NCBI GenBank assembly: GCA_963710645.1
Contig: CAVQBD010000009.1
Span: 1,551,199-1,615,198 of the forward strand
Length of the DNA stretch: 64,000 nucleotides
Direction of reading: 5' to 3'
Origin: an uncultured Holophagae bacterium
GTDB lineage: Bacteria > Acidobacteriota > Thermoanaerobaculia > Thermoanaerobaculales > Sulfomarinibacteraceae
A model generated the notes under the pieces. It was not told the DNA's origin and did not search any database. It saw nothing but the letters and a program-made list of their open reading frames with translations. Below, one piece after another: positions 4,280-55,303 of this stretch. A program made the translations under genes and the position numbers. Position 1 is the first letter of the stretch. Every line of letters starts with the position of its first letter.

Positions 4280-4291
4280 TGGAACGTTCCA
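4280..4291. promoter_or_regulatory. Candidate LacI-family operator O1 (perfect palindrome TGGAACGTTCCA)
   Basis: 12-bp perfect palindrome with central CG. The identical 14-mer ATGGAACGTTCCAA occurs three times in the 233-bp LacI/TBDR intergenic region. Confidence 0.6.
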
Positions 4292-4323: not shown

Positions 4324-4335
4324 TGGAACGTTCCA
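4324..4335. promoter_or_regulatory. Candidate LacI-family operator O2 (TGGAACGTTCCA)
   Basis: Second identical copy, 44 bp centre-to-centre from O1. Confidence 0.6.
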
Positions 4336-4404: not shown

Positions 4405-4416
4405 TGGAACGTTCCA
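4405..4416. promoter_or_regulatory. Candidate LacI-family operator O3 (TGGAACGTTCCA)
   Basis: Third identical copy, 81 bp centre-to-centre from O2. Confidence 0.6.
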
Positions 4417-15814: not shown

Positions 15815-17290
15815 ATGAACCCGTTGGCGACTCTCGCAGGGGTGGACGATCTCGAAGTCGCACCCAGCTCCATTGTCGAGGCACAGGGCACAACCTACGC
15901 TCTGGCGACGCGCGACAACTCGAAATTCGTGGTGGTCCTCGGCGATTCGAGCGGTTTCGAGGGAGAAGATCACCGACCGGGCGGTGTACGTCTGTCTCCG
16001 GTGAGTCCATCCACACTGTCCGGGCTTCGGATGCGTCTGCCGTGGCTGCTGCCGGTTCCATTGGGGCTTCGCACCTCATTTGGTTTCGGTGACAGGCTCG
16101 GGCTCGCTACACCCGGGCACATCCGGTCCCTCCGGTCTCTCCGTGGAGCAACCCACGGCATCGCGCCCATCTTCGCCCAACAGTCGGTTCGGGAGAATTT
16201 TCGCACCGGCCGCACTCCCCGACAGGTGATGGACGATGCCGCCTGGGCGGTCTTCGAGCACGGTTGGCGCGACCCGTGGGGTGCCGATGCCGACCATCTC
16301 AAGACACCGGACGACGCCTCGAAATTCGCAGCCGCCGGCTTCACCTTCTTTACCATTGATCCGGGCGAGCATGTGGATGACGATGTGGACGCGGCCAATT
16401 TGGAGGCCAAGGTTCGAGGCCTGCCGTGGAGCTCCCTCGAGGACACCGTGGAGGATTTCGAAAGACGGTTCCTGTCTTCCCCCTTCGACCTCGAGGGCAC
16501 CTCGGTGCCATTCGACCGGGCATCGCTGTGGGGAGCCGCCGCAAAGTATGGCCGTGCTGTTGCGCACACGGCTGAGATGTATCGCCACATCGCTGCGATC
16601 ATGGAGGACCGGCCTTTCGAACTCGAGGTTTCGGTGGACGAGACCGACAGTCCGACCAGCGTGCCGGAACACATCTACATCGCGAGCGAACTGCGGCGGC
16701 TGGGGGTGCGCTGGGTGAGTCTGGCGCCCCGGTTCGTGGGACGGTTTGAAAAGGGTGTCGACTACATAGGCGACCTCGAGGAGTTCTCACGACAATTCGC
16801 TAAGCACGCTGCCGTCGCTCGCCAATTGGGACCATACAAGCTGAGCCTGCACTCTGGATCGGACAAGTTCAGCATCTACCCGGTTGCCAGTCGGCTGACC
16901 CGTCACGGTGCGAGGTCCCCCGGTCCGCTGGTCCACGTCAAGACCGCGGGAACCAGCTTCTTGGAGGCCCTGCGGGCCGTCGCCCGTGTCGATCCGGATC
17001 TGTTTCGGAGCGTCCTCGCCCTGGCGAAGGAGCGATACGAAAAGGACAAGCTGACCTACCACGTGTCGGCTGATCTTGCTCGGGTGGCCTCGCCCGAGGA
17101 CCTCGACGATTCGGAGCTCGAGGGTCTGCTCGAGCAGTTTGATGCTCGAGAGGTACTCCACGTGACCTTTGGATCCGCGCTGGATCGGTATGGCGATCCA
17201 ATCCGCGCGACCCTCGTGGAAAACAAGCAGGCGTATTCCGATGTGCTCACCTCGCACTTCGCCAAACACCTCGCGGATTTTGTGGATTGA
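15815..17290 (+). CDS. uxaE: Tagaturonate/fructuronate epimerase (UxaE)-like protein
   Basis: 491 aa. The size and the blocks SFGFGDRLGLATPGH and GADADHLK match my recollection of the UxaE family. Lies directly downstream of the IolO-like gene. Confidence 0.5.
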   Translation: MNPLATLAGVDDLEVAPSSIVEAQGTTYALATRDNSKFVVVLGDSSGFEGEDHRPGGVRLSPVSPSTLSGLRMRLPWLLPVPLGLRTSFGFGDRLGLATPGHIRSLRSLRGATHGIAPIFAQQSVRENFRTGRTPRQVMDDAAWAVFEHGWRDPWGADADHLKTPDDASKFAAAGFTFFTIDPGEHVDDDVDAANLEAKVRGLPWSSLEDTVEDFERRFLSSPFDLEGTSVPFDRASLWGAAAKYGRAVAHTAEMYRHIAAIMEDRPFELEVSVDETDSPTSVPEHIYIASELRRLGVRWVSLAPRFVGRFEKGVDYIGDLEEFSRQFAKHAAVARQLGPYKLSLHSGSDKFSIYPVASRLTRHGARSPGPLVHVKTAGTSFLEALRAVARVDPDLFRSVLALAKERYEKDKLTYHVSADLARVASPEDLDDSELEGLLEQFDAREVLHVTFGSALDRYGDPIRATLVENKQAYSDVLTSHFAKHLADFVD

Positions 17291-17394
17291 GGAGGATTTC
17301 GAGATGTGTCGCCCGATGCGCCGTGGGCCGTTTTATGGATCTCCGGCCGTTGGGCCTTTGTGATCGCTGAATTTCCCTGACCCCGGGGGACGAT

Positions 17395-18699
17395 ATGACC
17401 ATTGGAACGAGCAGCACAGCCCGCCCCCTCACCCAAAGCGAGGTTCGCGGCATCATGGCCGAAGCTCTAGACCATCTCGAGCTGGATGGTCAGCGGATAT
17501 TGGTCATCATTCCCGATGGGACCCGTACCGCGCCCATCCCCCTCATGAGGCGTCTGTTCAGTGAGTTGCTTGGTTCACGGGTCGAAAAAATCGACTACCT
17601 TGTGGCCCTCGGAACCCACCCACCCATGGACGACGGCGCCCTGTCCCGTCTACTGGGCACCAAGGTGCTCGACGGCAAGGCTGGATCTTCGAGGGTCTTC
17701 AACCATCGATGGGATGTGGAAGAGACCTTTGTCACCCTGGGCACGGTGCCCGCCGCCGAGGTGGCTGCAGCCAGCGGCGGCCGACTCGAGCTCGACATTC
17801 CGGTGCGCCTCAATCGGTTGGTGGGCGAGCCGGACGGTTCGAGCCCCTATGATTTGATCGTGGTCTGCGGCCCGGTATTCCCCCATGAGGTCGCGGGATT
17901 TTCCGGCGGAAACAAGTACTTCGTGCCCGGGGTCGCGGGCCCCGAGATCATCAACGTGACCCACTGGATCGGGGCCCTGGTCACCAGCCGCGAGATCATT
18001 GGCGTCGCCGACACCCCGGTGCGGCGGCTGATCGATCGCGCGGCGTCCCATGTTGCAACCCCCACCCTGTTGGTGGCCATGGTGCTCGAGGGCACATCGC
18101 TCCACGGGCTCTTCGTCGGTGGGATGGAGGAGACCTGGCGTGCTGCCGCGAGGTTGTCGGCCGAGCTGGACATCGAATGGGTCGACAAGCCCTTTGAAAG
18201 GGTGCTGTCCATGGTGCCCGAGATGTATGACGATCTGTGGACCGGCGCCAAGGGTATGTACAAGCTCGAACCCGCCATCGCCGATGGCGGCGAGGTGGTG
18301 GTCTACGCGCCGCACATCACCGAGGTCTCTTATGTCCACGGGCGGTGGCTGGACGAGATCGGTTACCACGTCCGAGATTACTTCGTCGAACAGTGGCATC
18401 GATTTATGCATGTGCCCTGGGGCGTGATCGCCCACTCCACCCATCTCCGGGGCGACGGCAGCTTCATCGACGGCGTCGAGCGGCCACGGATCCGGGTGAC
18501 TCTGGCCACCGGAATCCCGCGGGAGCGCTGCGAGTCCATCGGTCTCGGCTACCTGGACCCCGCGACGGTGGACCCGGAGGAATGGGCCGGGCGGGAGGAG
18601 GAGGGCGTGATGCTGGTTCGAAGGGCCGGCGAACGGCTGTACCGACTGAAAGAGGAGATCCCGGCGACGAGACTTTCCAGTTCACAGGAGGGGAACTGA
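17395..18699 (+). CDS. LarA-family (nickel-pincer-cofactor dependent) 2-hydroxyacid racemase/epimerase homolog
   Basis: 434 aa. DUF2088/LarA N-terminal pattern ILVIIPDGTRTAP. FPHEVAGFSGGNKYFVPG carries the His and the Lys that tethers the cofactor in LarA. Confidence 0.75.
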   Translation: MTIGTSSTARPLTQSEVRGIMAEALDHLELDGQRILVIIPDGTRTAPIPLMRRLFSELLGSRVEKIDYLVALGTHPPMDDGALSRLLGTKVLDGKAGSSRVFNHRWDVEETFVTLGTVPAAEVAAASGGRLELDIPVRLNRLVGEPDGSSPYDLIVVCGPVFPHEVAGFSGGNKYFVPGVAGPEIINVTHWIGALVTSREIIGVADTPVRRLIDRAASHVATPTLLVAMVLEGTSLHGLFVGGMEETWRAAARLSAELDIEWVDKPFERVLSMVPEMYDDLWTGAKGMYKLEPAIADGGEVVVYAPHITEVSYVHGRWLDEIGYHVRDYFVEQWHRFMHVPWGVIAHSTHLRGDGSFIDGVERPRIRVTLATGIPRERCESIGLGYLDPATVDPEEWAGREEEGVMLVRRAGERLYRLKEEIPATRLSSSQEGN

Positions 18700-18730
18700 C
18701 AGGCCGGCACGGACCTATCAGGCCTGAGGA

Positions 18731-18772
18731 AGAAAATGAGAAATGAGAAATGAAAAATGAAGGACGTGAAAA
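18731..18772. repeat. Heptamer-periodic tandem array (AGAAAAT GAGAAAT GAGAAAT GAAAAAT ...)
   Basis: About 6 units of 7 nt, read directly, in the 159-bp gap between the LarA-like gene and phoD. Confidence 0.8.
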
Positions 18773-18858
18773 TCGAGACTCGGATTTCGGGACTCGTAAA
18801 TGTCTGATAACGAGAATGTGGTGGTGGCCAATGAGCCATCACCTGTGGAAGGTTTGAC

Positions 18859-20298
18859 ATGAGATTATCCTCCGTTGTTTCGCGATGCGTAATGCTCTCG
18901 CTGATTGTTTTCACCCTGACGTCACCCGCACTGGCCGCGTCGCGGGACGACGATGGGTACCCGAGGCTGATGCAGGGTCCAATGGTGGGGACCGTGACTC
19001 CTACCGAGGCACATATCTGGCTTCGAACCACGGGCGAGTATGTCGTCACCATCGAGTACGGCACCGGCTTCGAACTTCGATCGGCTCTCACCACCGAACC
19101 GGTGACGGCGAGCAAGACTGCGGACTACACGCTGGTGGTGACGATCCCAGATCTCCAACCCGCCACCGAGTACTTCTACCGCGTACTGGTCGACGGCCAG
19201 GGCGACAAATATCTCGAGGAATATCCGCCGTTCCGATTCAAGACCGCACCGGCCCCGGGAACCAGCGCCAGCTTCAGGGTCGGCTTCGGTTCCTGTCCCA
19301 AATACCAGGATGACCGGATGCAGCCGATCTGGCCGGTCATCTCGGGATTCGAACCGGATCTGTTTTTCTGGATTGGGGACAACATCTACGGCGACACCCT
19401 CGACCCGGACATCCTGCGTGAGGAGTACCGCCGCCAGCGCGATGTCCCCGGGTTGCAACCCCTGCTGCACAACACCTCGCACCTCGCCGTCTGGGATGAT
19501 CATGATTTCGCGCTCAACAACCACGATCGAACCAACCCCATCAAGGACCGGGCGCTCGAGGTGTTCAAGGACTACTGGGCCAACCCTGCCTACGGACTGC
19601 CCGATGTACCGGGTGTGTTCTACAGCTACAGCTTCGGCGACGTTGATTTCTTTTTCATCGACGATCGCTATTACCGGGATCCCAACTCGGATCCGGACAC
19701 CCCGGAGAAGACCATGTTGGGACCCGCCCAGTTTGACTGGCTGCTCGAGCGGTTGTCGGCGAGCACAGCGGTCTTCAAGGTGATCGTATCGGGAAGCGGC
19801 TTCAGCAAGGCCAAGGGCGAGGGCGGCGACTCGTGGGCCGCGTTTCTCAACGAACGGAACAGGCTTTTTGACTTCATTCGGGACGAGGAGATCAGCGGCG
19901 TGGTCCTGCTGACGGGCGACTCCCACGTGGGCGAACTCAACGTGATTCCGTGGTCGGAGCGGGGCGGCTACGATCTCTACGATCTCGTGAGTTCGCCACT
20001 GGCCCAGCGCAACCCGGATTCATGGCTGCACCGGAGACCCGAGCGGCGCATCCGTCCGGTGTACTTCAGGGGAAGCAGTGTCGGCGTGGTGGACTTTCTG
20101 CTCGATGATCCGCCACGCTTGATGTACCGCATCATCGACATCCACGGCCGCAACGTCTGGGAGCCATTCGTTGTGCGGGCGGACGAGCTGGTCAACGGCG
20201 TGACATCCTGGCCCGATAAGGTCCACAGCGATTCCAGACAACGCCAGGAGAACTACGATGCTGGCAAGGGCTATTACGAGATCGAGGCGGAGGACTAG
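18859..20298 (+). CDS. phoD: PhoD-family alkaline phosphatase/phosphodiesterase, secreted
   Basis: 479 aa. Signal peptide. FWIGDNIYGD, AVWDDHDF and LLTGDSHVGE metallophosphatase blocks typical of PhoD. Confidence 0.85.
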   Translation: MRLSSVVSRCVMLSLIVFTLTSPALAASRDDDGYPRLMQGPMVGTVTPTEAHIWLRTTGEYVVTIEYGTGFELRSALTTEPVTASKTADYTLVVTIPDLQPATEYFYRVLVDGQGDKYLEEYPPFRFKTAPAPGTSASFRVGFGSCPKYQDDRMQPIWPVISGFEPDLFFWIGDNIYGDTLDPDILREEYRRQRDVPGLQPLLHNTSHLAVWDDHDFALNNHDRTNPIKDRALEVFKDYWANPAYGLPDVPGVFYSYSFGDVDFFFIDDRYYRDPNSDPDTPEKTMLGPAQFDWLLERLSASTAVFKVIVSGSGFSKAKGEGGDSWAAFLNERNRLFDFIRDEEISGVVLLTGDSHVGELNVIPWSERGGYDLYDLVSSPLAQRNPDSWLHRRPERRIRPVYFRGSSVGVVDFLLDDPPRLMYRIIDIHGRNVWEPFVVRADELVNGVTSWPDKVHSDSRQRQENYDAGKGYYEIEAED

Positions 20299-20301
20299 CC
20301 G

Positions 20302-21504
20302 GTGACAAACAATTGCCATTGCCGTGGGTTTCGCGGCTCCTTTGCTGGTTCACTCGTCGTTCATCTGACGGTGCTGACGCTCGTCCTCATGGCAGGCGGG
20401 CTGGGCGCTGAAGCGGCGGAATCTCCGGACGGGGAACTGGTCTTCATCGTTGCCGCGGACATGAGGAACTTCGCCGCGGACGGTGTGTGGTCAAAGAATT
20501 TCTCGGGCGCGTGCGAGGCGGTGAAAAAGGTCGGTGCGGGTTCCTTCATGGTCAGTCCGGGTGACCTCGATGTGGATCCGCCGTCGGCGGTCAGGGACAT
20601 GGTGAGTACGGTCCTCGGCGACGACTATCCGTGGTACCCCATCCTCGGCAACCACGACCCCGAGTCTCCTTCCACCATGAAGTACCTGCGCGAGTACAGC
20701 CAGAGTGTGCCCAACGTGGTGAATCGGGGGCCAAAGGGTTGTGAGGCCACCACCTATTCCTTTGACTGGTCGAACGTCCACTTCGTGGTGCTCAATCAGT
20801 ATTTCGACGGCGTCAAGGACTGGGGTGTCGAGGGTGACGTGGTTCCCGATCTATTGGAGTGGCTCGAGGCGGATCTGGCCGCCAACACAAAGGACCGCGT
20901 CTTTGTCCTCGGACACGAGCCGCTGATCGTCATGCCCGACATGGACAACGGGCGGATCCGCCACCAGGGCAACTCCCTCGACGAGCACCCGGAGAACATG
21001 TTCCAGTTCCTCAAGTTATTGAAGGAGTACGAAGTTGTGGCCTATATCTGCGGTCACACCCACAACACCTCCTATTCGAACATCAACGGCGTGTGGCAGC
21101 TCGATGCAGGTCACGCCCGGGGCCTCGAGGAGGCCTCTTACGCCGACCGAATGTACGCCGCCATCTCCGCAGCGATCGAGACCGGACGGGCCCATGGCGT
21201 CGGCGAGGCGGAGTCCATCAGGCAACTGTATAGAGACGACGCCTATCACGTGGACTATTGGTTCAAATACCTGGGGCTGGCGGGCCAACCTGTGGTTCAA
21301 ACCATGGCCCAGTTCTACGACGAGTACGGTACCGACCCCGGTGCACGAGACCGGTACTACGAAGCTCAGATCAAGGGCCGGGGCCAGACCCCAAGCACGT
21401 TTTTGAAAGTCACGGTGGGCGCGGCGAAGGTCACGGTGGATTTTTATCGCGACGACGCACATGGCGGGCCATACACTCTGCGAGAGACCCTCATTCTGGA
21501 TTGA
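20302..21504 (+). CDS. Calcineurin-like metallophosphoesterase, secreted
   Basis: 400 aa, GTG start. Signal/TM segment. SPGDLD, GNHD, VLGHEP and CGHTHN motifs. Confidence 0.8.
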   Translation: MTNNCHCRGFRGSFAGSLVVHLTVLTLVLMAGGLGAEAAESPDGELVFIVAADMRNFAADGVWSKNFSGACEAVKKVGAGSFMVSPGDLDVDPPSAVRDMVSTVLGDDYPWYPILGNHDPESPSTMKYLREYSQSVPNVVNRGPKGCEATTYSFDWSNVHFVVLNQYFDGVKDWGVEGDVVPDLLEWLEADLAANTKDRVFVLGHEPLIVMPDMDNGRIRHQGNSLDEHPENMFQFLKLLKEYEVVAYICGHTHNTSYSNINGVWQLDAGHARGLEEASYADRMYAAISAAIETGRAHGVGEAESIRQLYRDDAYHVDYWFKYLGLAGQPVVQTMAQFYDEYGTDPGARDRYYEAQIKGRGQTPSTFLKVTVGAAKVTVDFYRDDAHGGPYTLRETLILD

Positions 21505-23604
21505 GTGAATCCGTACGACGGGTATGTGATGGTAGACACCGACACGAATCAAGCGCTGATCAGGTTCGGGCGAGTGGCGTTGATCGTGACGGTGTTCATA
21601 TTTCTCAGCCCAATTCTCGCCGTCGCGATGGAGCTCGAAGGCGTGCGTCTCAGCTCGAAACCGACGATCGATGGCGTTGTGGACGAGGCTGTGTGGTCAG
21701 AGGCGGCGGTTGCCGAGGGATTCGTTCAGTTTGTGCCCAAGTTCGGACAACCCTCTCCATATCGAACGGTGGTCCTCGTGGGCTCCACCGAGGATGCCCT
21801 GTACGTCGCCTTCAAGTGCTTCGATCCCGAGTCGAAGGACATCTCCGCCGCGGTGACGTCTCGTGATGGTTCCCTAGAAAATGATGACTCTGTCGCCCTC
21901 CTCCTCGATACCTTCCACGACCAGCGGAGGGCCTACTACTTCATCACCAACACCCTCGGGGTTCAGGGGGATGGCAAGGTGGCCGACAACGGTCGGGTGG
22001 TGGAGAACGAGTGGGATGGGACGTGGGAGTGCGCCTCCAGCAGATCGGCGGACGGCTGGACGAGCGAGTTCGCGATTCCATTCAGGATGCTCCGCTTCAG
22101 CGGTGGTGAAGACACTACCTGGGGCATTAATTTTCACAGATACGTCCCCCGCCGGCTCGAGACATCGGTGTGGTCGGGTCCCGGGGAGTCGGAGTGGCGG
22201 GTCTCGAGTTTCGGGCAACTGACGGGGCTCGATCTTCGAACCACGGAAGCCAAGAAGTACGCCATCATCCCTTACGGGCTTGCGGTGGTGGAGAAGGGCC
22301 AGGAGCCCCATTACGAGGCGGGGGTAGATCTCAGGTTTCGGATTGCCCAGGGGCTGAGCGCCGATCTGACGTTGAATCCCGACTTCGCCCTCGTGGAAGC
22401 CGATGTGGAGCAGATCAACCTCACCAGATACGAGCTCTTTGTTCCGGAAAAAAGACCCTTCTTCCTTGAAGGCAACGAGATGTTCGATCAGCGGATCCGT
22501 CAGTTCTACAGCCGGCGGATCGGCGACATCGATTGGGGCGGCAAGCTCACCGGCAATGTGTTGGGCTTCGACGTGGCCGCCATCGCCTCGGTGGCCGATC
22601 TCCATCCGGATGAAGATCTCGAAAACGTGGACGATTCGGCGGACTACGCCGTGGTGCGTCTCCAGCGGGGGATTTTCGGCGGCTCGACGGTGGGGCTACT
22701 GGCGGCGAACCGTAGCGTCGGCTCGGACCGAGCCGGGTCCTTTGGCCTGGACACGACCCTCTTCTTCACCGAAACCATCGGCATGACAGCCCAATTTCTC
22801 CGCTCCCACGGGCCCGAGCACGACGGTGCCCAGGGTTGGTTTCTGAGACCGGCATATGACTCGGCCAACTCCCATTTTCACATCAGGTACACCAACCTCG
22901 ATGTGGGTCTCAAGGACAACGTCAACGCGATCGGTTTTTTGGAGGACGACGACCGCAAGGAGTTCGACACCGAAGTCAAACACATTTTTTGGTTCGAGAG
23001 CAGTGCGTTTGAGAGGCTCGAGGGCAAGATCAACTACAACCGCTTCTGGAGTCAGGACGGGATCCTGAGGAGCTGGGAGCTGGAATCCGATGTGGAGATC
23101 GTATTCACGAACTTCTGGCAGGTCGAGCTTTCCTACGTGGATGCCTACGAGCTCTTTGAAAAGGAGTACCGTAACTCAATCACTAGCCTGCAGGTGGGCT
23201 GGGACAACCGGGCCGGCAAGTTCTTTGCCGTCGAGGTGGGGACCGGAAAGAACTTCGACTCGGATCTGAGGCTGGCGACCCTCGAGACGGGGCTCATCCT
23301 GTTCAGCGCGCTGGATCTGTCATACGAGGCCACCTGGCTCGATCTCGACCCGGACCCGGAGAACGAGAGCACGTGGATCCATGTCTTCCGGGTGAACTAC
23401 CACTTCACGAACGACCTCTATGTCAATCTCTTCTGGCAGACAAACTCGGTCATCCAGAAGGAGAACATCCAACTCCTCGCCGTGTGGCGATTCATGCCTC
23501 CGTTCGGGTCGCTCCAGGTGGCATATCAGCGCGGGACCTCGGAGATCGGGACCCCGTCGGATCAGGGAGACTCGCTCTTCACGAAGTTGCAGTGGGTGTT
23601 CTGA
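21505..23604 (+). CDS. DUF5916 / carbohydrate-binding-family-9-like outer-membrane-associated protein
   Basis: 699 aa. The start is uncertain: GTG at 21505 or ATG at 21529. N-terminal KPTIDGVVDEAVWSEA...FVQFVPKFGQP is typical of CBM9-like/DUF5916 proteins. The C-terminal part is beta-rich and ends in F. Confidence 0.6.
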   Translation: MNPYDGYVMVDTDTNQALIRFGRVALIVTVFIFLSPILAVAMELEGVRLSSKPTIDGVVDEAVWSEAAVAEGFVQFVPKFGQPSPYRTVVLVGSTEDALYVAFKCFDPESKDISAAVTSRDGSLENDDSVALLLDTFHDQRRAYYFITNTLGVQGDGKVADNGRVVENEWDGTWECASSRSADGWTSEFAIPFRMLRFSGGEDTTWGINFHRYVPRRLETSVWSGPGESEWRVSSFGQLTGLDLRTTEAKKYAIIPYGLAVVEKGQEPHYEAGVDLRFRIAQGLSADLTLNPDFALVEADVEQINLTRYELFVPEKRPFFLEGNEMFDQRIRQFYSRRIGDIDWGGKLTGNVLGFDVAAIASVADLHPDEDLENVDDSADYAVVRLQRGIFGGSTVGLLAANRSVGSDRAGSFGLDTTLFFTETIGMTAQFLRSHGPEHDGAQGWFLRPAYDSANSHFHIRYTNLDVGLKDNVNAIGFLEDDDRKEFDTEVKHIFWFESSAFERLEGKINYNRFWSQDGILRSWELESDVEIVFTNFWQVELSYVDAYELFEKEYRNSITSLQVGWDNRAGKFFAVEVGTGKNFDSDLRLATLETGLILFSALDLSYEATWLDLDPDPENESTWIHVFRVNYHFTNDLYVNLFWQTNSVIQKENIQLLAVWRFMPPFGSLQVAYQRGTSEIGTPSDQGDSLFTKLQWVF

Positions 23605-23635
23605 CCCCCGGACAATTTGGTGACCCCAATCGATC

Positions 23636-24421
23636 TCAGATCGTCATCGCCGTGAAACCGCCGTCCACCCGGATGACGGTGCCGGTGACAAAGGACGAGG
23701 CCTTTTCAGATGCGAGCCACACCACCGCGCCGGCAAGCTCCTCGGGCTCGCCAAATCTTCCCATGGGGGTGTGGCCCATGATGGACGCCACCCGCTCCTC
23801 GGTGAGGATCTTGCGGTTTTGTTCGGCGGGGAAGAACCCGGGTGCCACGGCGTTGACCCGCACGCCATGGGGCGCCCACTCGCGGGCCAGGAATTGGGTG
23901 AGGTTGTTGACCCCGGCCTTGGTGATGGAGTAGGTGTAGACCTTGCTCAGCGGCGGCCCGGACGAGGCCGACGAGATGTTGATCACCGAGCCGCCGTCGC
24001 CCTGGTCGACCATCCGGCCGCCGAAGATCTGACACGCAAGATGCATGCTGGTGAGATTGACCCGTAGGATCCGCTCCCATTCATCAAGAGTGATGTCGAA
24101 GAATGGGGTGGCCGAATTGATCCCCGGAGCGTTGAGCAGGATGTCCACCCGGCCCCACTCCGACACCACCTGGTCGCAGGCGCGGCGAAGATCGATCTCG
24201 CTTGTGGCGTCCACCTGGAGGTCGATGGCATCGGTGCCGTTGGCGTCGCGGATGCTCCTGGCTCGCTCCTCGGCCGCGCCGGCATCCAGGTCCAGCACCG
24301 CGACTTTGGCCCCTGCTTTTCCGAGGGCCTCAGCCATGGCCCCGCCCAGAACTCCGCCCGAGCCGATGGTCACCGCCACCTTGCCAACAAGTGAGAACAT
24401 TTCACTGATGTACATGCTCAT
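23636..24421 (-). CDS. Short-chain dehydrogenase/reductase (SDR)
   Basis: Track ORF 23636..24592 trimmed to the ATG at 24421, which has GGGAG 6 nt upstream. TIGSGGVLGG cofactor motif, YSITKAG catalytic YxxxK. Confidence 0.85.
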   Translation of the reverse strand: MSMYISEMFSLVGKVAVTIGSGGVLGGAMAEALGKAGAKVAVLDLDAGAAEERARSIRDANGTDAIDLQVDATSEIDLRRACDQVVSEWGRVDILLNAPGINSATPFFDITLDEWERILRVNLTSMHLACQIFGGRMVDQGDGGSVINISSASSGPPLSKVYTYSITKAGVNNLTQFLAREWAPHGVRVNAVAPGFFPAEQNRKILTEERVASIMGHTPMGRFGEPEELAGAVVWLASEKASSFVTGTVIRVDGGFTAMTI

Positions 24422-24666
24422 GGTTGACTCCCGGCCCGATCCATTGAACGTTGAAAGGGATGATGGCCCTGGTGGGTCCCGCTGACCTTGTCCCAGGGCG
24501 TGATCGCTCAACCATTCTAGGGCAAGGTCGGGCATACCAGAAGGGCTGCCCTCGGGGAGATGACCAACCACTCCGGTCATTTCTAGATTCATTGTGATGA
24601 ATGCCGAGAAACGGAGCCGGGAAGACCTATTATGGACCGGTGAAATCGACAGCGTTGGACGGGAAC

Positions 24667-26174
<1,508 letters not shown>

Positions 26175-26178
<4 letters not shown>

Positions 26179-27734
26179 GACGGAAGAGAGCACTCGAGGC
26201 GATCGAGGACTTCAATGGTTTCTGGGATTTGGTCATTGTCGGGGGCGGTGCCACCGGGCTTGGTGCGGCGGTGGATGCATCGGCCCGTGGCTACAAGACC
26301 CTACTGCTGGAGCAGCACGACTTTTCCAAGGGCACGTCCAGCCGGAGCACGAAACTGGTTCACGGCGGTGTTCGGTATTTGCGGCAGGGCAATGTGTCGC
26401 TGGTATTGGAGGCGCTCCACGAACGAGGGCTGCTGGCGCAGAACGCACCTCATCTGGTGCGCAATCAGTCATTCATCGTTCCCATTTACGACTGGTGGGA
26501 GGGGCCCTTCTACGGGATCGGGCTCAAGGTCTACGACAAGCTGGCGGGCCGTCTCGGTATCAAACCCTCCGAGGGGCTGTCGCGGGAGGAGACGCTGAAG
26601 AGGATTCCGAACCTCGAGCCCGAGGGTCTGCGTGGCGGAGTGCTCTACTACGACGGCCAGTTCGACGACTCGAGACTGGCAATCGATCTCGCCCGCACTG
26701 CGGTCCGACACGGCGGAACCGTCATCAACTACATGCGGGTCGAAGGACTGCTCAAGATCGGCGGCATGGTGTCGGGGGTCCGCGCCCGGGACCTGGAGAC
26801 GGGCAAGGAGCTTGTGATCAACGCACGGGTGGTGGTCAACGCCACCGGGGTCTTCACCGATCAGGTCCGGGTCATGGATGATCCACAGAGCCGGCCCATG
26901 GTCACCCCGAGCCAGGGCACCCATCTCGTGCTGGCCAGGGATTTCCTGCCGGGAAATGTGGCCATCATGGTGCCCCAGACCACCGACGGTCGGGTCCTCT
27001 TCGCGGTGCCGTGGCACGATAGGGTTGTGGTCGGCACCACCGACGTGGAGGTTGACGAGCCGACGCTGGAGCCGCGGGCCCTTCCCGAGGAAGTGGACTT
27101 CATCCTCGAAAATGCCTCGAGCTACATGGCCAAGGACCCGCAACGCTCCGATGTGCTGAGCGTGTTCGCCGGCCTTCGGCCGCTGGTGACGGCTGACGAC
27201 GATGAAGAGACTTCGAAGATCTCCCGCGACCACACGGTGGTGGTCTCCGAATCGGGTCTGGTGACAATCACCGGCGGCAAGTGGACCACCTACCGGAAGA
27301 TGGCCCAGGACGTCGTGGACCAGGCGGCCATGGTGGCCGGGCTGGTTCCCCATCCCTGTCCCACCGAGACCCTACGTATTCACAGCTGGCTCAAACATGT
27401 GGATCCCTCGGATCCTCTCCACGTCTATGGCTCGGATGCCCCGGCGCTGCGCAAACTCGTTCAAAAGGACCGCAAGTTGGGCGAGCCGCTCGACGAACGG
27501 CTGCCGGTGATTGGAGCGCAGGTGGTGTGGGCGGTGGAAAAGGAGATGGGTCGAACCGTGGAGGACGTGCTCGCCCGGCGGACTCGCGCCCTGCTGCTGG
27601 ACGCGCGGGCCAGCGTCGCGGTGGCGCCACAGGTGGCCAAGCTCATGGCACGCTGGCTGCGCAAGGGCCGGAAATGGCAGGCCGAGCAGGTTGAGGCCTA
27701 CACCGCCGTCGCCAGTGGTTATATCTTGGACTGA
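26175..27734 (+). CDS. glpD: FAD-dependent glycerol-3-phosphate dehydrogenase
   Basis: 519 aa. [21 protein letters not shown] motif and [22 protein letters not shown] overlap with glpK. Confidence 0.9.
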
Positions 27735-27740
27735 CAAAAA

Positions 27741-27855
27741 GTGAATAGTAAATAGTGAATAGTGAATAGTAAATAGACCGAGTTGGGGTCCCCACGCCCT
27801 TGCCGGACGGGAGGGGGCATATTCACTATTCACTATTTACTATTCACTTATTACT
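27741..27855. repeat. Pair of inverted heptamer arrays (GTGAATA/GTAAATA x5 and its complement x5) forming a perfect 27-bp inverted repeat
   Basis: 27741-27767 is the exact reverse complement of 27821-27847, checked base by base, with a 53-nt spacer. It lies between the convergent glpD and peroxiredoxin genes. The right arm contains the peroxiredoxin stop codon. Confidence 0.9.
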
Positions 27856-28461
27856 TGAGCTGCGCGACACCCCCAGCGACGCGAGCCGCTGGGCGATTTG
27901 GGTCCCGTGGGAGCCCGCGTCCACCTCGGTGATGATGTCCAAGATGGTGCCGTCGACGCCGATGATGAAGGTCCACCGCTCCGGGTACGACCGACCTTCG
28001 TGGACCACCCCGTAGGCCTTGGCAGTCTTTTTGTCCGGGTCGCTCAAGACCGGGTAGTCCAGATCGAGGGTCTTGGCGAACCGTCTATTAGTCTCGGGCG
28101 AGTCGCAACTGGCGGCGAAAAGGGCGATATCAAAGGCATCGAGGCCCGATCCGTCGGAGGTGGGGAGTTCGATTGCCTTGCCGCTTTCGAGTTCGACCAT
28201 CTGCGCATGGGTTCGTCCGCTGGCACGCAGCGAATCGCACTCGCTGGTTCAGCCGCCGGTGAAGGCCTTGGGGAACCAGGCGAGGACGACCACCTGCTTG
28301 TCGTGCAAGTCGTCGAGCGTGTGAGTCTCGCCGTCGCTGCCGGGAAGCTCGAAGGCGGGCGCTGGGTCGCCGATTCCCAGGGCGGGTGGGCCGGCAACCA
28401 CCGTGAGAGAGGCGCAGGTCATTGCGATACCCAAGACACAGATCGAAGGGAACGGTTTCAT
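27844..28461 (-). CDS. Secreted AhpC/TSA (BCP-like) peroxiredoxin with in-frame TGA at the peroxidatic Cys position: candidate selenoprotein, or alternatively a nonsense pseudogene
   Basis: Track ORFs 28249..28461 and 27844..28200 are in the same frame (offset 261 nt), separated only by the TGA at 28249-28251. Read-through gives ...VVVLAWFPKAFTGG-U-TSECDSLRA..., matching the Prx motif FxPxxFTxxC-T.E. Signal peptide at the N-terminus. Confidence 0.6.
28228..28246 (-). promoter_or_regulatory. Candidate bacterial SECIS-like hairpin just 3' of the in-frame UGA
   Basis: The mRNA reads UGA AC-CAGCGA-GUGCGAU-UCGCUG: a 6-bp stem (7 with G-U) and a loop starting GU. A second possible hairpin, CUGCG...CGCAG, lies 22-51 nt after the UGA. 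Neither was evaluated with a model. Confidence 0.3.
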
Positions 28462-28509
28462 CAGATACCTCTCTCTGGGTGGGCCTCGAGATTGGTCACC
28501 CGGGGCACA

Positions 28510-29505
28510 CTATTCGATGTGCTCGAGCAGGGAACGAGCCGTCGGGGCATCGGGACTGTCAGGGTCGAGCTCGAGGAACGCGCTGAAAGCCTCCTTCGCA
28601 CATTGGGTGTCAACGAGCTTGTTGCAGGTCAGACCGAGCTGGAACTTGGCCGGCGCCAGGTCCGGTTGCCGTTCCAGGATCACTTCGAGGAGCGCCCTGG
28701 ATTGCGCGTACCTGTTGTGGTCAAACAACGCCACCGAGTGCGTCAGGAGTTCGCTCGAGACCATCTCGGGCTTGACATCGGCGAGTCGCTGCGCCCACTT
28801 CACCATCCCTTCGGTGTTCCCCATCATCAATTCGGCGTAGTAGGCGGTGCCCAAAGCCTCCTCATTGTCGGGCTCGAATTCGAGCAGTTTCTCAGCCGCG
28901 TCGGCTGCGATCGCGTACTCGTCCTGAGCGATGGCCGCTGCAGCGATCGCGCGGTAGGCCTCGGGAAAATCAGGGTCGAGCTTGGAGGCCTCCTGGAACA
29001 TTGACAGTGCGATGAGGTAGTTCTCGGCCTGGAGAGCTCCAACCCCCTCGTTGAAGACTGATATGGCCTCCATGCGTTGGGCATTCGCCTGCAGTTCGGC
29101 GTCATCGACCGCCGCAGCGGTGGTGGCGGGATCTTCCGCAATCGTCGATTCATCCAGCGTAGGGAGGGTGAAAATAACCCTCGCTGGATCATTGGGGTCG
29201 GGATGGAACGTCGCCTCGGCGGTAGCGTACCCCTCCAGCGCCGCGGTGATTGTGTAGGTTTGATTCCAGTCAGGCACCCGCAGTTTGAAGGTGCCGTTCT
29301 TTTTTGTGGTGGTGGTGGGCTGGGGTCCGGCCGCCTGTGCGACCGCGGTGATGACTGCTCCGGCGAGAGGCTCGCCACTCATGTCCACGACCTCGCCTTG
29401 TATGGTGGTCGGCCCACCAGCGAAGGTGACGCTGGTCATCGTCGCCAGTGTGAGAACAAGAACAGCTGCCTCAAGAACAGTCGATATCTTATGAAGGTGT
29501 TTCAC
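28510..29505 (-). CDS. Secreted protein with carboxypeptidase-regulatory-like N-domain and TPR repeats
   Basis: 331 aa. Signal peptide. IQGEVVDMSGEPLAGAVITA...TFKLRVPDW (CarbopepD_reg-like). The C-terminal half has TPR-like AxxYxxAL repeats. Confidence 0.65.
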   Translation of the reverse strand: MKHLHKISTVLEAAVLVLTLATMTSVTFAGGPTTIQGEVVDMSGEPLAGAVITAVAQAAGPQPTTTTKKNGTFKLRVPDWNQTYTITAALEGYATAEATFHPDPNDPARVIFTLPTLDESTIAEDPATTAAAVDDAELQANAQRMEAISVFNEGVGALQAENYLIALSMFQEASKLDPDFPEAYRAIAAAAIAQDEYAIAADAAEKLLEFEPDNEEALGTAYYAELMMGNTEGMVKWAQRLADVKPEMVSSELLTHSVALFDHNRYAQSRALLEVILERQPDLAPAKFQLGLTCNKLVDTQCAKEAFSAFLELDPDSPDAPTARSLLEHIE

Positions 29506-29597
29506 TGCAAGCCCCCAGAGATTTCAGAATTCGTGACAGCGGCAGAAACCAGGTTCAACCCGCCCCGCCGTGAATCTGGCGAGCACTATACCGTGTT

Positions 29598-29674
29598 CGG
29601 GACTCGGGACTCGGGACTCGGATGAAGCAGCCGCTCGTGCGCTCCGATCAACCGAATCCCGAGCCCTGAGCCCC
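29598..29674. repeat. Inverted heptamer arrays: CGGGACT x3.5 (29598-29622) and CCGAATC CCGAGCC CTGAGCC CC (29652-29674)
   Basis: Read directly. The two arms are about 19/23 complementary, including a G-U-compatible position. Confidence 0.75.
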
Positions 29675-29738
29675 GTTGGCTTCAGGACCCCAAGACCTCA
29701 AGACCATGGTGCGGGTGGGGGGCCGTGATCCCCGGTGC

Positions 29739-29873
29739 TTAGTCGCGGCCGGAGGCGAGGTCCAGCATGATGTCACCATCGTCGATGGTGAGCCCGGTGA
29801 GATCAAAATAGAAACCGAACCAACGTCGGATCAGTGAGTGAATATTCCGCAACAGTCTTGGTGAGTGTCTCAT
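29739..29873 (-). CDS. Candidate small protein (44 aa), unknown function
   Basis: MRHSPRLLRNIHSLIRRWFGFYFDLTGLTIDDGDIMLDLASGRD. The ATG is preceded by GGAAGGAGA at 6-nt spacing and lies 22 nt downstream of the hydrolase stop. No family recognised. Confidence 0.35.
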   Translation of the reverse strand: MRHSPRLLRNIHSLIRRWFGFYFDLTGLTIDDGDIMLDLASGRD

Positions 29874-29895
29874 TGCGTCTCCTTCCTGACATCCG

Positions 29896-30657
29896 TCAGG
29901 CAGCACTTTGGGAATCAGATTCGTGGGGCGTGGATACATTTTTCAAAAAACGACCTCGCTCGGCGATGAAATCGGTGACCGCATCGACCACCGAGGGATC
30001 CCGCAAGATCCGACGGTGCCCAAGCCCCTCGGTGGTGTGCATTACCGCCTCGGGCAACGAATGGGCGAGGTGTCTTCCCTCGCTCCACTGAATTTCTGGG
30101 TCGCTGTGGTCATGGATGATCAGGCTGTCGTTGTGCAGCTCCGATGCGAGCCGCCACGGCTCCACATCGTTCCATTGGAAGTTGAAGCGACGTTCCAGCC
30201 GCCGTCGCATACGCTCGACAACGTCCGGGCTGAAGCCCGTCATCTCACCGAACCAATCGGTCAAGGCTGTGGTGCGAGCGGCAGGTGCCAACAACACCAG
30301 ACGGTCGGCGGCCAAACCACGTCGACTCGCTCCAAGGAGGACCGCCGCAGCACCCAGAGAGTGCCCGACAACTCCGGCGAACGGGCCGTACTCCTTGGCC
30401 ACCGCCATCAGTCCGTCGGTGTGGCGGAAGAGATTGGATGTGTGACCAGGGGCTGCGCCGTGGGCCGGTGCGTCGTAGGCCACCACGCGGTATCCGGCAG
30501 CCGCGAGGGATGCGGCGAACGCACCGAGTTGGAGACCCCGCCCGGTCCACCCGTGCACCAGCAGCACGGTGTGTGGACCTTCGCCCCACACCCAAACCGG
30601 AAGAGCGCCGTGCGGCGAGACTCTTTCTTCACGGCGGGCGCCGGTGGCCCAGTCCAA
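29896..30657 (-). CDS. Alpha/beta-fold hydrolase
   Basis: 253 aa. VLLVHGWTGRG and nucleophile elbow GHSLGAAA. Confidence 0.8.
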   Translation of the reverse strand: MDWATGARREERVSPHGALPVWVWGEGPHTVLLVHGWTGRGLQLGAFAASLAAAGYRVVAYDAPAHGAAPGHTSNLFRHTDGLMAVAKEYGPFAGVVGHSLGAAAVLLGASRRGLAADRLVLLAPAARTTALTDWFGEMTGFSPDVVERMRRRLERRFNFQWNDVEPWRLASELHNDSLIIHDHSDPEIQWSEGRHLAHSLPEAVMHTTEGLGHRRILRDPSVVDAVTDFIAERGRFLKNVSTPHESDSQSAA

Positions 30658-30771
30658 CTCCCGACGGGGGGTGCGTGAGCGCAGCGAGGTGGTGAACAGC
30701 CGTTCGGCCAGCCACGCCGCAACCGCTGGCGCCCATGTGCTGAGAAGGGCGAATGATCTGTTGATATTGGG

Positions 30772-30794
30772 AGCACGACCGATCGTGCTTTTTT
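30772..30794 (+). terminator. Intrinsic-terminator-like hairpin with no upstream plus-strand gene
   Basis: AGCACGA-CCGA-TCGTGCT followed by TTTTT(G). Located in the 330-bp divergent region between the hydrolase (-) and the GT2 gene (+). Confidence 0.45.
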
Positions 30795-30987
30795 GTCAAT
30801 ACCCAATCTTGGAGTCGAAAGTCAAAAGTGCTAGCCTGCACGTCGATCCGCCGGGTCAACCAACCCATCGCGGCACGTCGATTGGGTATTGGTTGTTTCA
30901 CCACGGGGATTCTCGATTACGATTGTTGATTGAAAGTGGCCCGGGCAGCGAAGACATCGAGCGAGTTGCAGCGAATTCGCGAAGTCG

Positions 30988-31677
30988 GTGGATCCATTGA
31001 TCAGCATCGTCATTCCAGCCCTGAACGAGGCGCGGGCCCTCCCGGCCACCCTCGAGTCCGTCGCATCGCAGACCGGACCGCTGGAGGTGATTGTGGCTGA
31101 CGGCAGCAGCGACGACCGCACCGTCGAGATCGTCCGCGGGTTTGCCGCGGCGGGTCACCGGGTGCGCTGCGTTCAGGCCCCGCGCGGACGGGCGCGCCAG
31201 ATGAACGCCGGCGCGGTGGTCGCGGGTGGGGATTGGCTGTTGTTCCTGCACGCGGACACCAAGTTGCCGGAGGGTGCCGTGCGCGGTATCGCTGCCCTCC
31301 CCGATGCGGTCCAGGCGGGCTGCTTCCACCAACTCTTTGACACACCGAGCCGATTTCTGCGCGCGCTGTCCTGGATGCACAACAAACGGTTTTTTTTCAC
31401 ACGGGTGATGTACGGAGACCAGGCCATATTCATCCGCCGAAAGCTGTTCGATGAGATTGGCGGCTTTCCTGACCGGCCGATGGAGGACGTGGCCTTCAGC
31501 CTTGCCCTCCGGCAGAAGACCAAGCCCATCATGTTGCCTGCGGTGGTGCGCACCGGTGCTCGCAAGTTCGAGCAGATGGGTCATTGGCGCGCCCTCCGTC
31601 ACTCGGTTCTGCTCCTGCTGAGGTTCCGTCGCGGCGCCGATGTTTCGGGGGACCGGTTTTTCGACGAGTATCGCTAG
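30988..31677 (+). CDS. Family-2 glycosyltransferase, resembling the TIGR04283 'rSAM/selenodomain-associated' transferase family
   Basis: 229 aa. SIVIPALNEA, EVIVADGSSDDRT, GRARQMNAGA, LLFLHADTKLP, YGDQAIFIRRKLFDEIGGFPDRPMEDV. The family assignment is from memory of its consensus. Confidence 0.7.
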   Translation: MDPLISIVIPALNEARALPATLESVASQTGPLEVIVADGSSDDRTVEIVRGFAAAGHRVRCVQAPRGRARQMNAGAVVAGGDWLLFLHADTKLPEGAVRGIAALPDAVQAGCFHQLFDTPSRFLRALSWMHNKRFFFTRVMYGDQAIFIRRKLFDEIGGFPDRPMEDVAFSLALRQKTKPIMLPAVVRTGARKFEQMGHWRALRHSVLLLLRFRRGADVSGDRFFDEYR

Positions 31678-31753
31678 GTGGAGCAGCGGGCAGTACCGCC
31701 CGCCCGGAATCGTACTGCCCACTTGACACGCGCCTTCTAATGGGTGGCAACCT

Positions 31754-31861
31754 GCCGGCGGCAGCGATTGTGGCCTGGGCCGGGAGGGATGTGGCGGGGG
31801 GTGACCCGGCCACTGGCCACTCGCTGGTGACGGCTGGTCACCGCGGCCGCAGGCCGCGAGT
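31754..31861. mobile_element. MITE-like GC-rich repeat, copy 1, flanked by 5-bp direct repeat AACCT
   Basis: It shares its termini with the copy at 52199-52320: GCCGGCGGCAGCGATYGTGGCC on the left and GGCCACTCGCTGGTGACGG...CCGCGGCC-loop-GGCCGCGAG on the right. AACCT occurs at 31749-31753 and 31862-31866. Confidence 0.5.
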
Positions 31862-31921
31862 AACCTCGGGGAGTGCCATCAGAATAGGGGCGCGATGAAA
31901 TCAGTGAATCGAAGCGAACGC
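31862..31921 (+). repeat. Partial, diverged copy of the 149-bp intergenic element (3' module)
   Basis: AACCTCGGGGAG...AAATCAGTGAATCGAAGCGAACGC aligns with 52053-52113 and with the reverse complement of 59700-59760. Confidence 0.6.
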
Positions 31922-32084
31922 TCGGGGAGCCTCCATCGCGCCCCGATTCTCATTGCGCCCCCCGTGAGGATGCCAGGCACGCCGATTCGCCCAATCGAGA
32001 CGGGTCATGTCTGCGGCCGCGGCGAATCGGGATGCCAGGCACCTCCGAGGGACGCGCCCTACGCTCCGGGTTGGCGGGGGACCC

Positions 32085-32168
32085 CATGCCTCATACCCCA
32101 CAACCCATACCCCGGGTGGGCGAAGGTCAACCCGGAACTCGCAACCCTCAACCCGAAACTCCTCAACG
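32085..32168. repeat. Heptamer-periodic arrays in one register (CATACCC/CACAACC then TCAACCC/GCAACCC/GAAACTC)
   Basis: 12 consecutive 7-nt units, read directly. The array runs into the stop codon of the patatin gene (32163-32165). Confidence 0.75.
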
Positions 32169-33059
32169 TCCCAGGAGCTTCTTGAGATACGGCAACTGCT
32201 GTTCCGCGGTCCTCTCCCCCTGCTCGATGACATAGGAGAACTTACCGGTGTCGAAGAGACCAACTCGCTGATCGAAGTCGGGCAACACCGGAATGATCTC
32301 GGCGTGGTGGGCGAGATTGTGAAACGCGTAGCTCGCCCGCAGCAGATTATTGGTGTACACGCTGTTGAGCTGGAAGGCGTAGCGAGTTGCTGACTTGATT
32401 TTGCGCGGGTACTCGGCCTCAAAACCCATGGCCAGAATGATCTCCGCTCCCTCGCGAATGGCCACATCAACCGGCAGGGGATTGGAAAGACAGCCGTCGA
32501 CGAGCATGCGATCGCCCACCTGCCAGGCGGGCCAGACGTAAGGTATGGCGATGCTGGCGCGGATCGCGTCGAAGAGCCGGCCCTCGGAAAGGACGACCTT
32601 CTCGCCGCTGTGGAGATCGGTTGTGGAGATGTGAAGCGGCGTCACGGTGTCGTCAAAGGTTCGGTCACCGAAGCCCTCAGCCAACAAGCGATTCAATGCG
32701 TCGTCGCTGATCAGGCTGAACCGGCTGTCGAAGGCGAAGAACTTGGGTAGGAAGATGCTCGCCACCGCCCTGAGATTCCGCGATGCCGTGACCTCTCGGG
32801 TCCACAGCTTTTTGGTCAGGGCCTCGACCTCTTCAAGATCGGCATTGAGGGCCATCATGGTCGTGAAGAGCGTTCCTCCGCTACAACCGACAAAAAGATC
32901 GATGGGGATGTTCTCCCGATGGAGGACCCGCCACAATCCGAGGGCCGCGGCGCATTTGACCGCTCCGGATCCCACTACGAGAGCGATCTGGGGGGTGTTT
33001 TTTGAATTGTCAGCCATCGTGTGCTCCGTTTCTCTGTGGATCGTCGCCTCGAACACCAT
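32163..33059 (-). CDS. Patatin-like phospholipase
   Basis: 298 aa (alternative start MADNSK at 33017). Oxyanion GSGAVKCAA, lipase motif GCSGG, catalytic Asp context VDGCLSNPLP. Confidence 0.85.
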   Translation of the reverse strand: MVFEATIHRETEHTMADNSKNTPQIALVVGSGAVKCAAALGLWRVLHRENIPIDLFVGCSGGTLFTTMMALNADLEEVEALTKKLWTREVTASRNLRAVASIFLPKFFAFDSRFSLISDDALNRLLAEGFGDRTFDDTVTPLHISTTDLHSGEKVVLSEGRLFDAIRASIAIPYVWPAWQVGDRMLVDGCLSNPLPVDVAIREGAEIILAMGFEAEYPRKIKSATRYAFQLNSVYTNNLLRASYAFHNLAHHAEIIPVLPDFDQRVGLFDTGKFSYVIEQGERTAEQQLPYLKKLLGR

Positions 33060-35933: not shown

Positions 35934-35978
35934 AGTAAATAATTTGCAATTTGCAATTTGCAATTTGCAATCTGTAAT
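35934..35978. repeat. Heptamer tandem array (AATTTGC x4 plus degenerate flanking units)
   Basis: Read directly. Lies between the convergent STAS gene and carB. Confidence 0.85.
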
Positions 35979-35996
35979 GGGTGGACGGGCGGGGAG

Positions 35997-45196: not shown

Positions 45197-45260
45197 GAGC
45201 AGGGAGCAGAACCCCTGCCCCTGAGGGTGGTTTCGGGTGACGAATTCCGGGTTTCGGGCT
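45197..45260. repeat. Heptamer-periodic segment including a 9-bp bulged hairpin (45200-45223) just after the mscS stop
   Basis: GAGCAGG GAGCAGA ACCCCTG CCCCTGA, then GGTTTCG recurring at a 21-nt spacing (45229 and 45250). Confidence 0.5.
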
Positions 45261-51941: not shown

Positions 51942-51970
51942 CTCCAGGATTGTGAGAGGCCGCGTTGATC

Positions 51971-55276: not shown

Positions 55277-55303
55277 CCTGGTCCTTCTGACCTAAGATCA
55301 ACT

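Follow-up and report, generated by a model that had tools for sequence, protein, structure and literature searches.

Paired arrays of seven-nucleotide units in intergenic DNA are known from Xanthomonas campestris and X. axonopodis, in which GGGAATC arrays form 70-75 convergent pairs close to or overlapping stop codons (Rehm et al. 2015, PMC4692102). Length and sequence of these pairs vary between species but the pair type is kept, starts or ends of transcripts fall on the repeats more frequently than on control sites, and the authors noted the potential of the pairs to form hairpins (PMC4692102). Cyanobacterial short tandemly repeated repetitive (STRR) heptamers (Mazel 1990, as cited in PMC4692102 and PMC4679880) are another kind of tandem heptamer, and marine Beggiatoaceae carry TAACTGA direct repeats of a single unit, mainly just upstream of start codons and with one inverted case (MacGregor 2015, PMC4679880). 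As related in the same two papers, heptanucleotides are the most over-represented long simple sequence repeats (SSRs) in many prokaryotes, and polymerase slippage was proposed as their source (Mrazek 2007 via PMC4692102, PMC4679880). For heptamer arrays in Acidobacteria we found no paper in the literature, and a 2025 survey of short tandem repeats makes no mention of heptamers. Here, we analyse a 64-kb window, i.e., the whole stretch of DNA under study, from contig CAVQBD010000009.1 of an uncultured Holophagae bacterium. A long inverted repeat between the convergent genes for a glycerol-3-phosphate dehydrogenase (glpD) and a peroxiredoxin in this window is an inverted pair of heptanucleotide SSR arrays, and represents one locus of lineage-wide intergenic 7-bp arrays in uncultured Acidobacteriota (Holophagae-like).

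The locus has the pair architecture of Xanthomonas, as two intergenic arrays of about four heptamer units, one per strand, lie close together and near stop codons. It is not a member of the GGGAATC family, however: its unit is AU-rich, many units exist per genome, the phylum is Acidobacteriota and the arms are perfectly mirrored over 30 bp. The unit, AATAGTR, is free of G-runs and G-tracts, and G-quadruplex or i-motif potential is thus absent here. Like the STRR sequences as portrayed in the citing papers, the arrays consist of tandem 7-nt units, fall into several families per genome, are dispersed between genes, favour a period of seven and have slippage as their proposed origin; they differ from them in unit sequence and host taxon, and inverted pairs are reported to be rare in Nostoc. 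With the Beggiatoaceae repeats they share the orientation bias of intergenic heptamer arrays, for which post-transcriptional roles were suggested there (PMC4679880). The little-understood intergenic heptamer arrays of Xanthomonas, cyanobacteria and Beggiatoaceae are hereby extended to uncultured Acidobacteriota; this lineage has many families of units side by side, and one and the same gene end can carry arrays of differing sequence.

The window has a GC content of 0.63 and an intergenic share of about 8%. The features of the locus are, from left to right:

26175-27734, plus strand: glpD, FAD-dependent glycerol-3-phosphate dehydrogenase, from the translated open reading frame (ORF); homologues have DAO and DAO_C domains and the JGI name glycerol-3-phosphate dehydrogenase.
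27732-27734, plus strand: glpD stop codon TGA, from the sequence.
27736-27740, plus strand: A5 run directly 5' of the left-arm heptamer units, overlapping the outer end of the arm (27739-27740), from the sequence.
27737-27776, plus strand: left heptamer array, 5.9 copies of AATAGTG/AATAGTA, beginning 3 nt past the glpD stop, from repeat analysis.
27739-27768, plus strand: left arm of the perfect 30-bp repeat, paired in RNA and DNA folds, from blastn and folding.
27769-27819, no strand: 51-nt spacer, 67% GC, the first 8 nt of which continue the left array.
27805-27817, minus strand: C-tract motif CCCCCTCCCGTCC, a 13-mer found dispersed between genes (4 matches vs 0.61 expected), C-rich on the peroxiredoxin-sense strand.
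27820-27849, plus strand: right arm of the perfect 30-bp repeat, from blastn; identical sequence in sample L169.
27820-27855, minus strand: right heptamer array, AATAGTR on the peroxiredoxin-sense strand, 4.1 copies (27820-27848) plus a degenerate outer unit.
27844-28461, minus strand: peroxiredoxin, AhpC/TSA, BCP-like, a candidate selenoprotein with an in-frame TGA (28249-28251) at the conserved Cys, from homologue alignment.

The first-pass annotation had described 27741-27767 as the exact reverse complement of 27821-27847. The match is indeed exact and extends further, to 30 bp (27739-27768 vs 27820-27849; blastn self-match, 100%), or to 33 nt at 97% if one mismatch is included (27736-27768/27820-27852). 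The spacer, said to be GC-rich and 53 nt long, is GC-rich (67% compared with 23% in the arms, counted from the sequence) but measures 51 nt between the full perfect arms, so that the whole element spans 117 bp (27736-27852). It ranks first among the inverted repeats of the window and sits exactly between the two convergent stop codons, whose intergenic spacer is 109 nt long. The 14-mer AGTRAATAGTRAAT occurs seven times in the window, every time at this locus (expected 0.00, 100 shuffles), and the unit AATAGTR was found nowhere else in the window and the fetched loci. AATAGTG and AATAGTA variants follow one another in the mirrored order G-A-G-G in both arms. The arrays lie 3 nt from the stop codon of glpD and 0 nt from that of the peroxiredoxin gene. 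As had been noticed before, the right side supplies the end of the peroxiredoxin reading frame: the stop codon TGA (27844-27846, minus strand) lies inside the arm, and the right array also holds the last three codons, S-N-K, the last of them within the perfect arm and the preceding two in the degenerate outer unit.

The right arm recurs without change in L169, an independent Logan assembly (SRR21856589; 99.66% identity over 1188 nt), and the repeat is therefore not an artefact of a single assembly. The L169 contig stops within the arm, and a Logan contig of 3915 bp (ERR12037370) reaches no more than a few hundred bases beyond the peroxiredoxin gene. With two independent contigs ending in or near an arm, the inverted array probably acts as a breakpoint in short-read assemblies.

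Geometry alone could suggest a mobile element, MITE-like (miniature inverted-repeat transposable element) or REPIN-like (a doublet of repetitive extragenic palindromic sequences, REPs), that has the heptamer arrays as terminal inverted repeats. The 33-nt arms around a 51-nt core resemble such elements, a Y1 transposase gene adjoins glpD in relative L081, and an AACGTTR array followed by CCCACCCACCC forms the same composite at two unrelated loci (window 51905-51942 and L084 5396-5445), a hint that certain combinations of array and motif are spreading or have arisen more than once. We nevertheless consider mobility very improbable. Arms and spacer have no other copy in the 64 kb or the fetched loci, and the arms vary by whole units as SSRs do. 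Being direct-repeat arrays, they are not individually palindromic in the way of REPs, and a REP or REPIN was rejected on these grounds. A MITE was rejected as well, because the inverted termini come with neither a further copy nor a convincing target-site duplication (ACTGA vs ACTTGA).

Both RNA strands of the element are predicted to fold into an uninterrupted AU-rich duplex of 30 bp, at -60.2 kcal/mol (z -7.7) for the plus strand and -57.6 kcal/mol (z -8.7) for the minus strand, in agreement with the earlier proposal of a very long AU-rich stem on either strand. The spacer alone was ruled out as a structured RNA, its fold being ordinary (z +0.19). On minus-strand, peroxiredoxin-sense RNA the A5 run at 27736-27740 reads as a U5 run directly after the stem (CACUUUUUGUC, UUUUUG); on plus-strand RNA the A5 stands upstream of the stem and UUAUUACUU downstream. 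The element thus resembles bidirectional intrinsic terminators in its position between convergent stops and in the succession of A-run, hairpin and U-run on both strands. It departs from them in having a stem of 30 bp and 23% GC around a branched 51-nt interior, where intrinsic terminators have a GC-rich stem of 5-14 bp and a loop of 3-8 nt. A scan for canonical terminators found none in the 109-nt spacer, the sole match being a weak 5-bp minus-strand hairpin within chance expectation. Perfect or near-perfect double-stranded RNA of at least about 20 bp, i.e., about two helical turns, serves as substrate for RNase III, and a perfect duplex of 30 bp, the length predicted here, would be one. Rfam gave no match at gathering score in the window and, at E<=1 in 27500-32300, a single chance match outside the element; a tRNA/tmRNA search returned none.

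Single-stranded DNA of the element also folds well (-34.3 kcal/mol, z -8.0), and the arms are AT-rich and easily melted besides being perfect over 30 bp. A signal at the DNA level, i.e., a cruciform or hairpin that acts in replication, recombination or the absorption of supercoils, is all the same the least probable of the readings considered here. Cruciform extrusion is kinetically unfavourable with a 51-nt spacer of 67% GC, so that the cruciform potential once attributed to the repeat is unlikely to be realized. No recombinase genes are associated with the locus, and the corresponding arms of relative L084, described below, pair through G-U, which is of use to RNA and not to DNA.

Anatomy, fold stability, membership in the array class, enrichment and comparative pattern are direct results; the origin of the element and any effect on transcripts we infer as follows. 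Slipped-strand replication would multiply a 7-nt unit where selection leaves the DNA free, between the convergent stop codons, and the arrays would grow until they meet coding sequence, which on the peroxiredoxin side they would have overrun. The arms would be copied from each other, either by hairpin-templated (quasipalindrome-type) strand switching or by inverted duplication, which would keep them identical and would account for the A-variant unit at the mirrored position of both. Transcription from either gene would then yield an AU-rich stem of 30 bp around a GC-rich interior, the stem being preceded by an A-run and followed by a U-run. Such a non-canonical bidirectional transcript-end hairpin may halt or insulate read-through into the opposing gene and provide both mRNAs with a structured 3' end, and its duplex would also be a potential substrate of RNase III. 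This combination of slippage and copying with a functional hairpin is, in our view, the best explanation of the locus, held tentatively at a probability of roughly 45%. With such an origin, the locus would show clearly how slippage plus copying from arm to arm gives rise to a long perfect hairpin de novo and can even rewrite the C-terminus of a protein. If the arrays shape transcript ends, they would offer a cheap and fast-evolving source of terminators to a GC-rich genome.

Slippage is in accordance with the properties of the arrays as a class. The window contains eight arrays of period 7, two of period 6 and none of periods 5, 8, 9 and 10. All eight period-7 arrays are intergenic, within the roughly 8% of the window that lies between genes, and their units are mostly distinct (AAATGAG, AATAGTG, TCGGGAC, AATTTGC, ACTGCCT, GAGCCCC, CGAATTT). 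Their density is 125 per Mb in the window and 207 per Mb in four related contigs, compared with 15 per Mb across unrelated bacterial loci (2.07 Mb in total), an approximately eightfold difference for the window; period 7 is the commonest of periods 5-11 even in the unrelated loci. With 5.9 and 4.1 head-to-tail copies, the two arrays at glpD exceed the three copies that define heptanucleotide SSRs and STRR-like repeats, and, as in these, copy number and unit vary among related genomes. Six arrays lie 0-3 nt from a stop codon. A short tandem array just after the stop codon of carB is present in five of five relatives, with units that differ except in the closest pair:

35941-35971 in the window.
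5308-5334 in L166.
13201-13225 in L167.
12010-12042 in L084.
About 4020-4120 in L168.

Only L166, the closest relative (carB 93% identical), has an array orthologous to that of the window, ATTGCAG/A x3.9 as against ATTGCAA x4.4, with one unit position different. This difference in copy number and unit between orthologous arrays points to slippage dynamics. The nearest named relatives by carB are metagenome-assembled genomes (MAGs) of Holophagae (86%) and Acidobacteriota (79%), which makes an uncultured Acidobacteriota the probable host.

Arrays at the ends of genes such as carB raise the question whether the inverted pair is incidental. Each gene could have its own sense-oriented array (AATT-RCR or AATAGTR) in the 3' untranslated region, acting single-stranded as a platform for a protein that binds RNA or single-stranded DNA or, in concert with the C-tract, as a site where Rho loads; wherever two such genes converge, an inverted pair would follow automatically. 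At every locus seen, AATT-RCR arrays share the orientation of the gene that stops just upstream (carB in the window; carB, 9171 and 9439 in L166; 451, 5294 and 5480 in L084), and arrays follow carB in five of five relatives, as described above. Two C-tract motifs are enriched in the window, CCCCCTCCCGCCC with 4 matches vs 0.61 expected and CCCGCCCACCC with 14 vs 5.1, and at 10 of the 11 intergenic copies it is the mRNA strand that is C-rich, immediately past a stop codon. The copies are mostly intergenic, often beside heptamer arrays, and include, among others:

27805-27817, within the spacer of the inverted repeat.
35979-35989.
51780-51792.
54447-54459.
59866-59876.

They are candidates for rut-like sites of Rho loading or for a REP-like module. 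The orientation bias, however, comes from only about 5-6 independent loci (p ~0.02-0.03), the units are too diverse for one sequence-specific binder, and the A-versus-T skew of the arrays in gene sense is not significant (10/15). Independent arrays, moreover, would not be expected to have in common a unit found nowhere else, nor to mirror each other's order of variants over 30 bp. We consider an incidental pair of single-stranded arrays quite unlikely, and the same applies to the single-stranded roles named. Stop codons in all frames, tried as a general property of the units, were rejected: the property is true of AATAGTG and false for AATTGCR units.

Copying between arms, the second component of the preferred explanation, was examined by seeking the reverse complement of the unit of each array within 200 nt and scoring it over a 14-mer. 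The glpD-peroxiredoxin locus (27737/27820) scores 14/14. The first-pass annotation had pointed to similar opposed arrays at 29598/29652 and at 45200-45223. The former holds as a real pair and is the second opposed pair of the window:

29597-29675, minus strand: TCGGGAC x3.6 facing a degenerate AGCCCCG array, folding better on the transcribed minus strand.

The two arrays of this pair (29597/29653) score 12/14 with differences that are all transitions, and the fold reaches z -6.0 on the minus strand, the sense of both neighbouring genes, vs -3.7 on the other. The latter, 45200-45223, was dismissed as a short, ordinary and weak hairpin (z -1.4 and -0.9). In the relatives, L084 has a pair at 7822/7995 (14/14, about 145 nt between the arrays), further opposed complementary arrays at 5294/5480 and a score of 10-11/14, with transitions, in its own glpD-peroxiredoxin spacer. 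L168 has a pair at 5915/6007 (13/14), in which the array stem continues into a GC-rich apical stem, and L166 9171/9439 is a further candidate by eye with a score of only 9-10/14. Window and relatives taken together, opposed complementary arrays occur at five or six loci. In the deltaproteobacterial MAG PRO9 (L034 3412-3461), an array (TACGGAA...) passes directly, without a spacer, into its reverse complement, with the variant units in a mirrored gradient; opposed heptamer arrays are thus not confined to this lineage.

As more than 20 units exist in the data, neighbours that share the inverse unit cannot be due to chance, and the arms must either have been copied one from the other or be co-evolving. 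Quasipalindrome correction by intramolecular template switching in E. coli, studied by Ripley and by Lovett, reportedly turns imperfect inverted arms into identical ones. Such correction would account both for the mirrored variant and for the units that change in concert here. The process is known for point and short-patch mutations in short quasipalindromes, and its action on arrays 50-250 nt apart is one that we infer.

The arrangement glpK-glpD-peroxiredoxin is retained only in L084/L085, whose glpD is 83% identical. Their spacer of 233 nt contains four arrays, of which the outer two abut both stop codons. In the sense of the adjacent gene, the unit is AATAGTR on both sides in the window, whereas in L084 the peroxiredoxin side has AATTGCG and the glpD side AATTGCA/AATTACA; positions 4 and 6 have thus changed on both arms, and the remaining differences are G/A. 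The L084 arms pair via G-U on peroxiredoxin-sense RNA only (-99.2 kcal/mol, z -5.3; other strand z +0.7). Co-variation of the two arms, which the earlier annotation had suggested looking for in related genomes, is accordingly seen through a handful of substitutions in this single syntenic relative, where the pair type is present at the same locus; in the other relatives synteny is absent and no pair was found.

The (seleno)peroxiredoxin gene stands between glpD and a CarboxypepD_reg-TPR gene in the window and L084/L085 only. In L086, L180 and the P0005 contig, glpD is directly convergent with the TPR gene, and further glpD relatives have glpD-TPR neighbours only, without the peroxiredoxin gene. 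Presence or absence of this gene corresponds to a gene-sized insertion or deletion, the 3' side of which is the array pair. L086 (91% relative, metagenome scan) is syntenic with window positions 16911-29599 at about 83% nucleotide identity and has neither the peroxiredoxin gene nor arrays, and much shorter spacers. The peroxiredoxin family sequences of P0274 come without any 3' spacer and have no bearing on the arrays.

Several of these results weigh against a functional transcript-end hairpin. The consensus terminator scan does not call the long stem, which lacks the short GC-rich stem (5-14 bp) and small loop; with its 30 AU-rich base pairs and 51-nt interior it is unlike the canonical GC-rich terminators of this organism, e.g., at 55391-55418 (z -5.6). 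With one arm starting 5 nt past the glpD stop and the other upstream of the stop of the peroxiredoxin gene, ribosomes that terminate there would mask a portion of each 5' arm. Arrays in the window and its relatives are mostly solitary; of 11 array loci in the window, only about two are opposed pairs, and the pair of L168 lies in a divergent and not in a convergent spacer. The G-U strand asymmetry of L084 amounts to just two or three independent substitutions. L086, L180, L081, L167 and the P0005 contig (glpD 80-91% identical) either lack the peroxiredoxin gene or have different neighbours, with no arrays in those whose DNA was examined, no array pair follows glpD in the examined DNA of L086, L180, L081, L167 and L082, and L083 has only a short single GATTGAA array over the glpD stop. 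On this evidence the element is young and dispensable. Recruitment of heptamer arrays as hairpins, as previously suggested, is likewise not their general role, because most arrays in the lineage are solitary.

A purely neutral by-product is nearly as likely as a functional hairpin. The element would then have originated by the same slippage and copying and be filler between stop codons, with the hairpin as a side effect. If only coding constraint limits growth by slippage, arrays should abut or overlap stop codons, as do the six arrays at 0-3 nt and the overlapping array of L083. The peroxiredoxin ORF was lengthened by five residues: its C-terminus reads SSSNK beyond the point where homologues end in ...LGVxxR, because the ORF continues into the array until a TGA inside a unit. 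The lack of arrays in close relatives such as L086 and L180, the variation of units between loci and the general preference of bacteria for 7-bp slippage (Mrazek et al. 2007 via PMC4692102, PMC4679880), also visible in our background loci, are in line with neutrality as well. Matching opposed arrays, however, recur far above chance given the more than 20 units, complementarity of the arms was kept in the syntenic relative after two unit changes, and the fold is better on a transcribed strand in the two informative cases. Recurrence, kept complementarity and strand bias could, in turn, all come from the copying mechanism alone.

Sense-oriented arrays and C-tracts also suggest a more novel reading, in which heptamer arrays of this marine Holophagae-like lineage would be more than debris of slippage and belong to a clade-specific 3'-end system, made up of sense (AAUURCR)n arrays at stops, C-tracts CCCCCUCCCGCCC and CCCGCCCACCC on the mRNA strand and co-evolving opposed arrays at convergent genes. 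The element at 27736-27852 would be its bidirectional form, with arms kept complementary by RNA-level selection. We regard such a system as unlikely.

The peroxiredoxin itself is probably a selenocysteine protein, judging from its sequence and those of its homologues. The in-frame TGA aligns with the Cys of a full-length Planctomycetaceae homologue (...AWFPKAFTGG*TSEC vs ...AWYPKAFTGGCTKEC), the gene is split into two fragments likewise in L084, L169 and L170-L179, and about 100 database matches are C-terminal fragments of about 105 aa. A search for a selenocysteine insertion sequence (SECIS) hairpin after the in-frame UGA found a hairpin that starts 1 nt downstream and is not significant (z -1.2).

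Other intergenic elements of the window were noted in passing. At 55302-55418, two different and perfect heptamer arrays stand end to end (GAGCCCC x5.3, then CGAATTT x5), followed by the textbook bidirectional terminator at 55391-55418. The 12-bp palindrome TGGAACGTTCCA has three exact copies (4280-4291, 4324-4335 and 4405-4416; 0.15 expected), all within the divergent spacer of 232 bp that separates 3187-4260 (minus strand) from 4493-7192 (plus strand), and these look like putative operator sites for a dimeric regulator. A non-coding repeat of about 150 nt occurs at 51970-52119 and, in reverse, at 59694-59843 (81% identity between the two), with a weaker third copy at 31864-31926, and another of about 130 nt at 31745-31864 and 52191-52324 (70% identity). 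Both have no Rfam match, contain internal inverted repeats and are located in the three longest intergenic regions. The copy at 52191-52324 is flanked by direct ACTGCCT heptamer arrays at 52181-52197 and 52321-52345.

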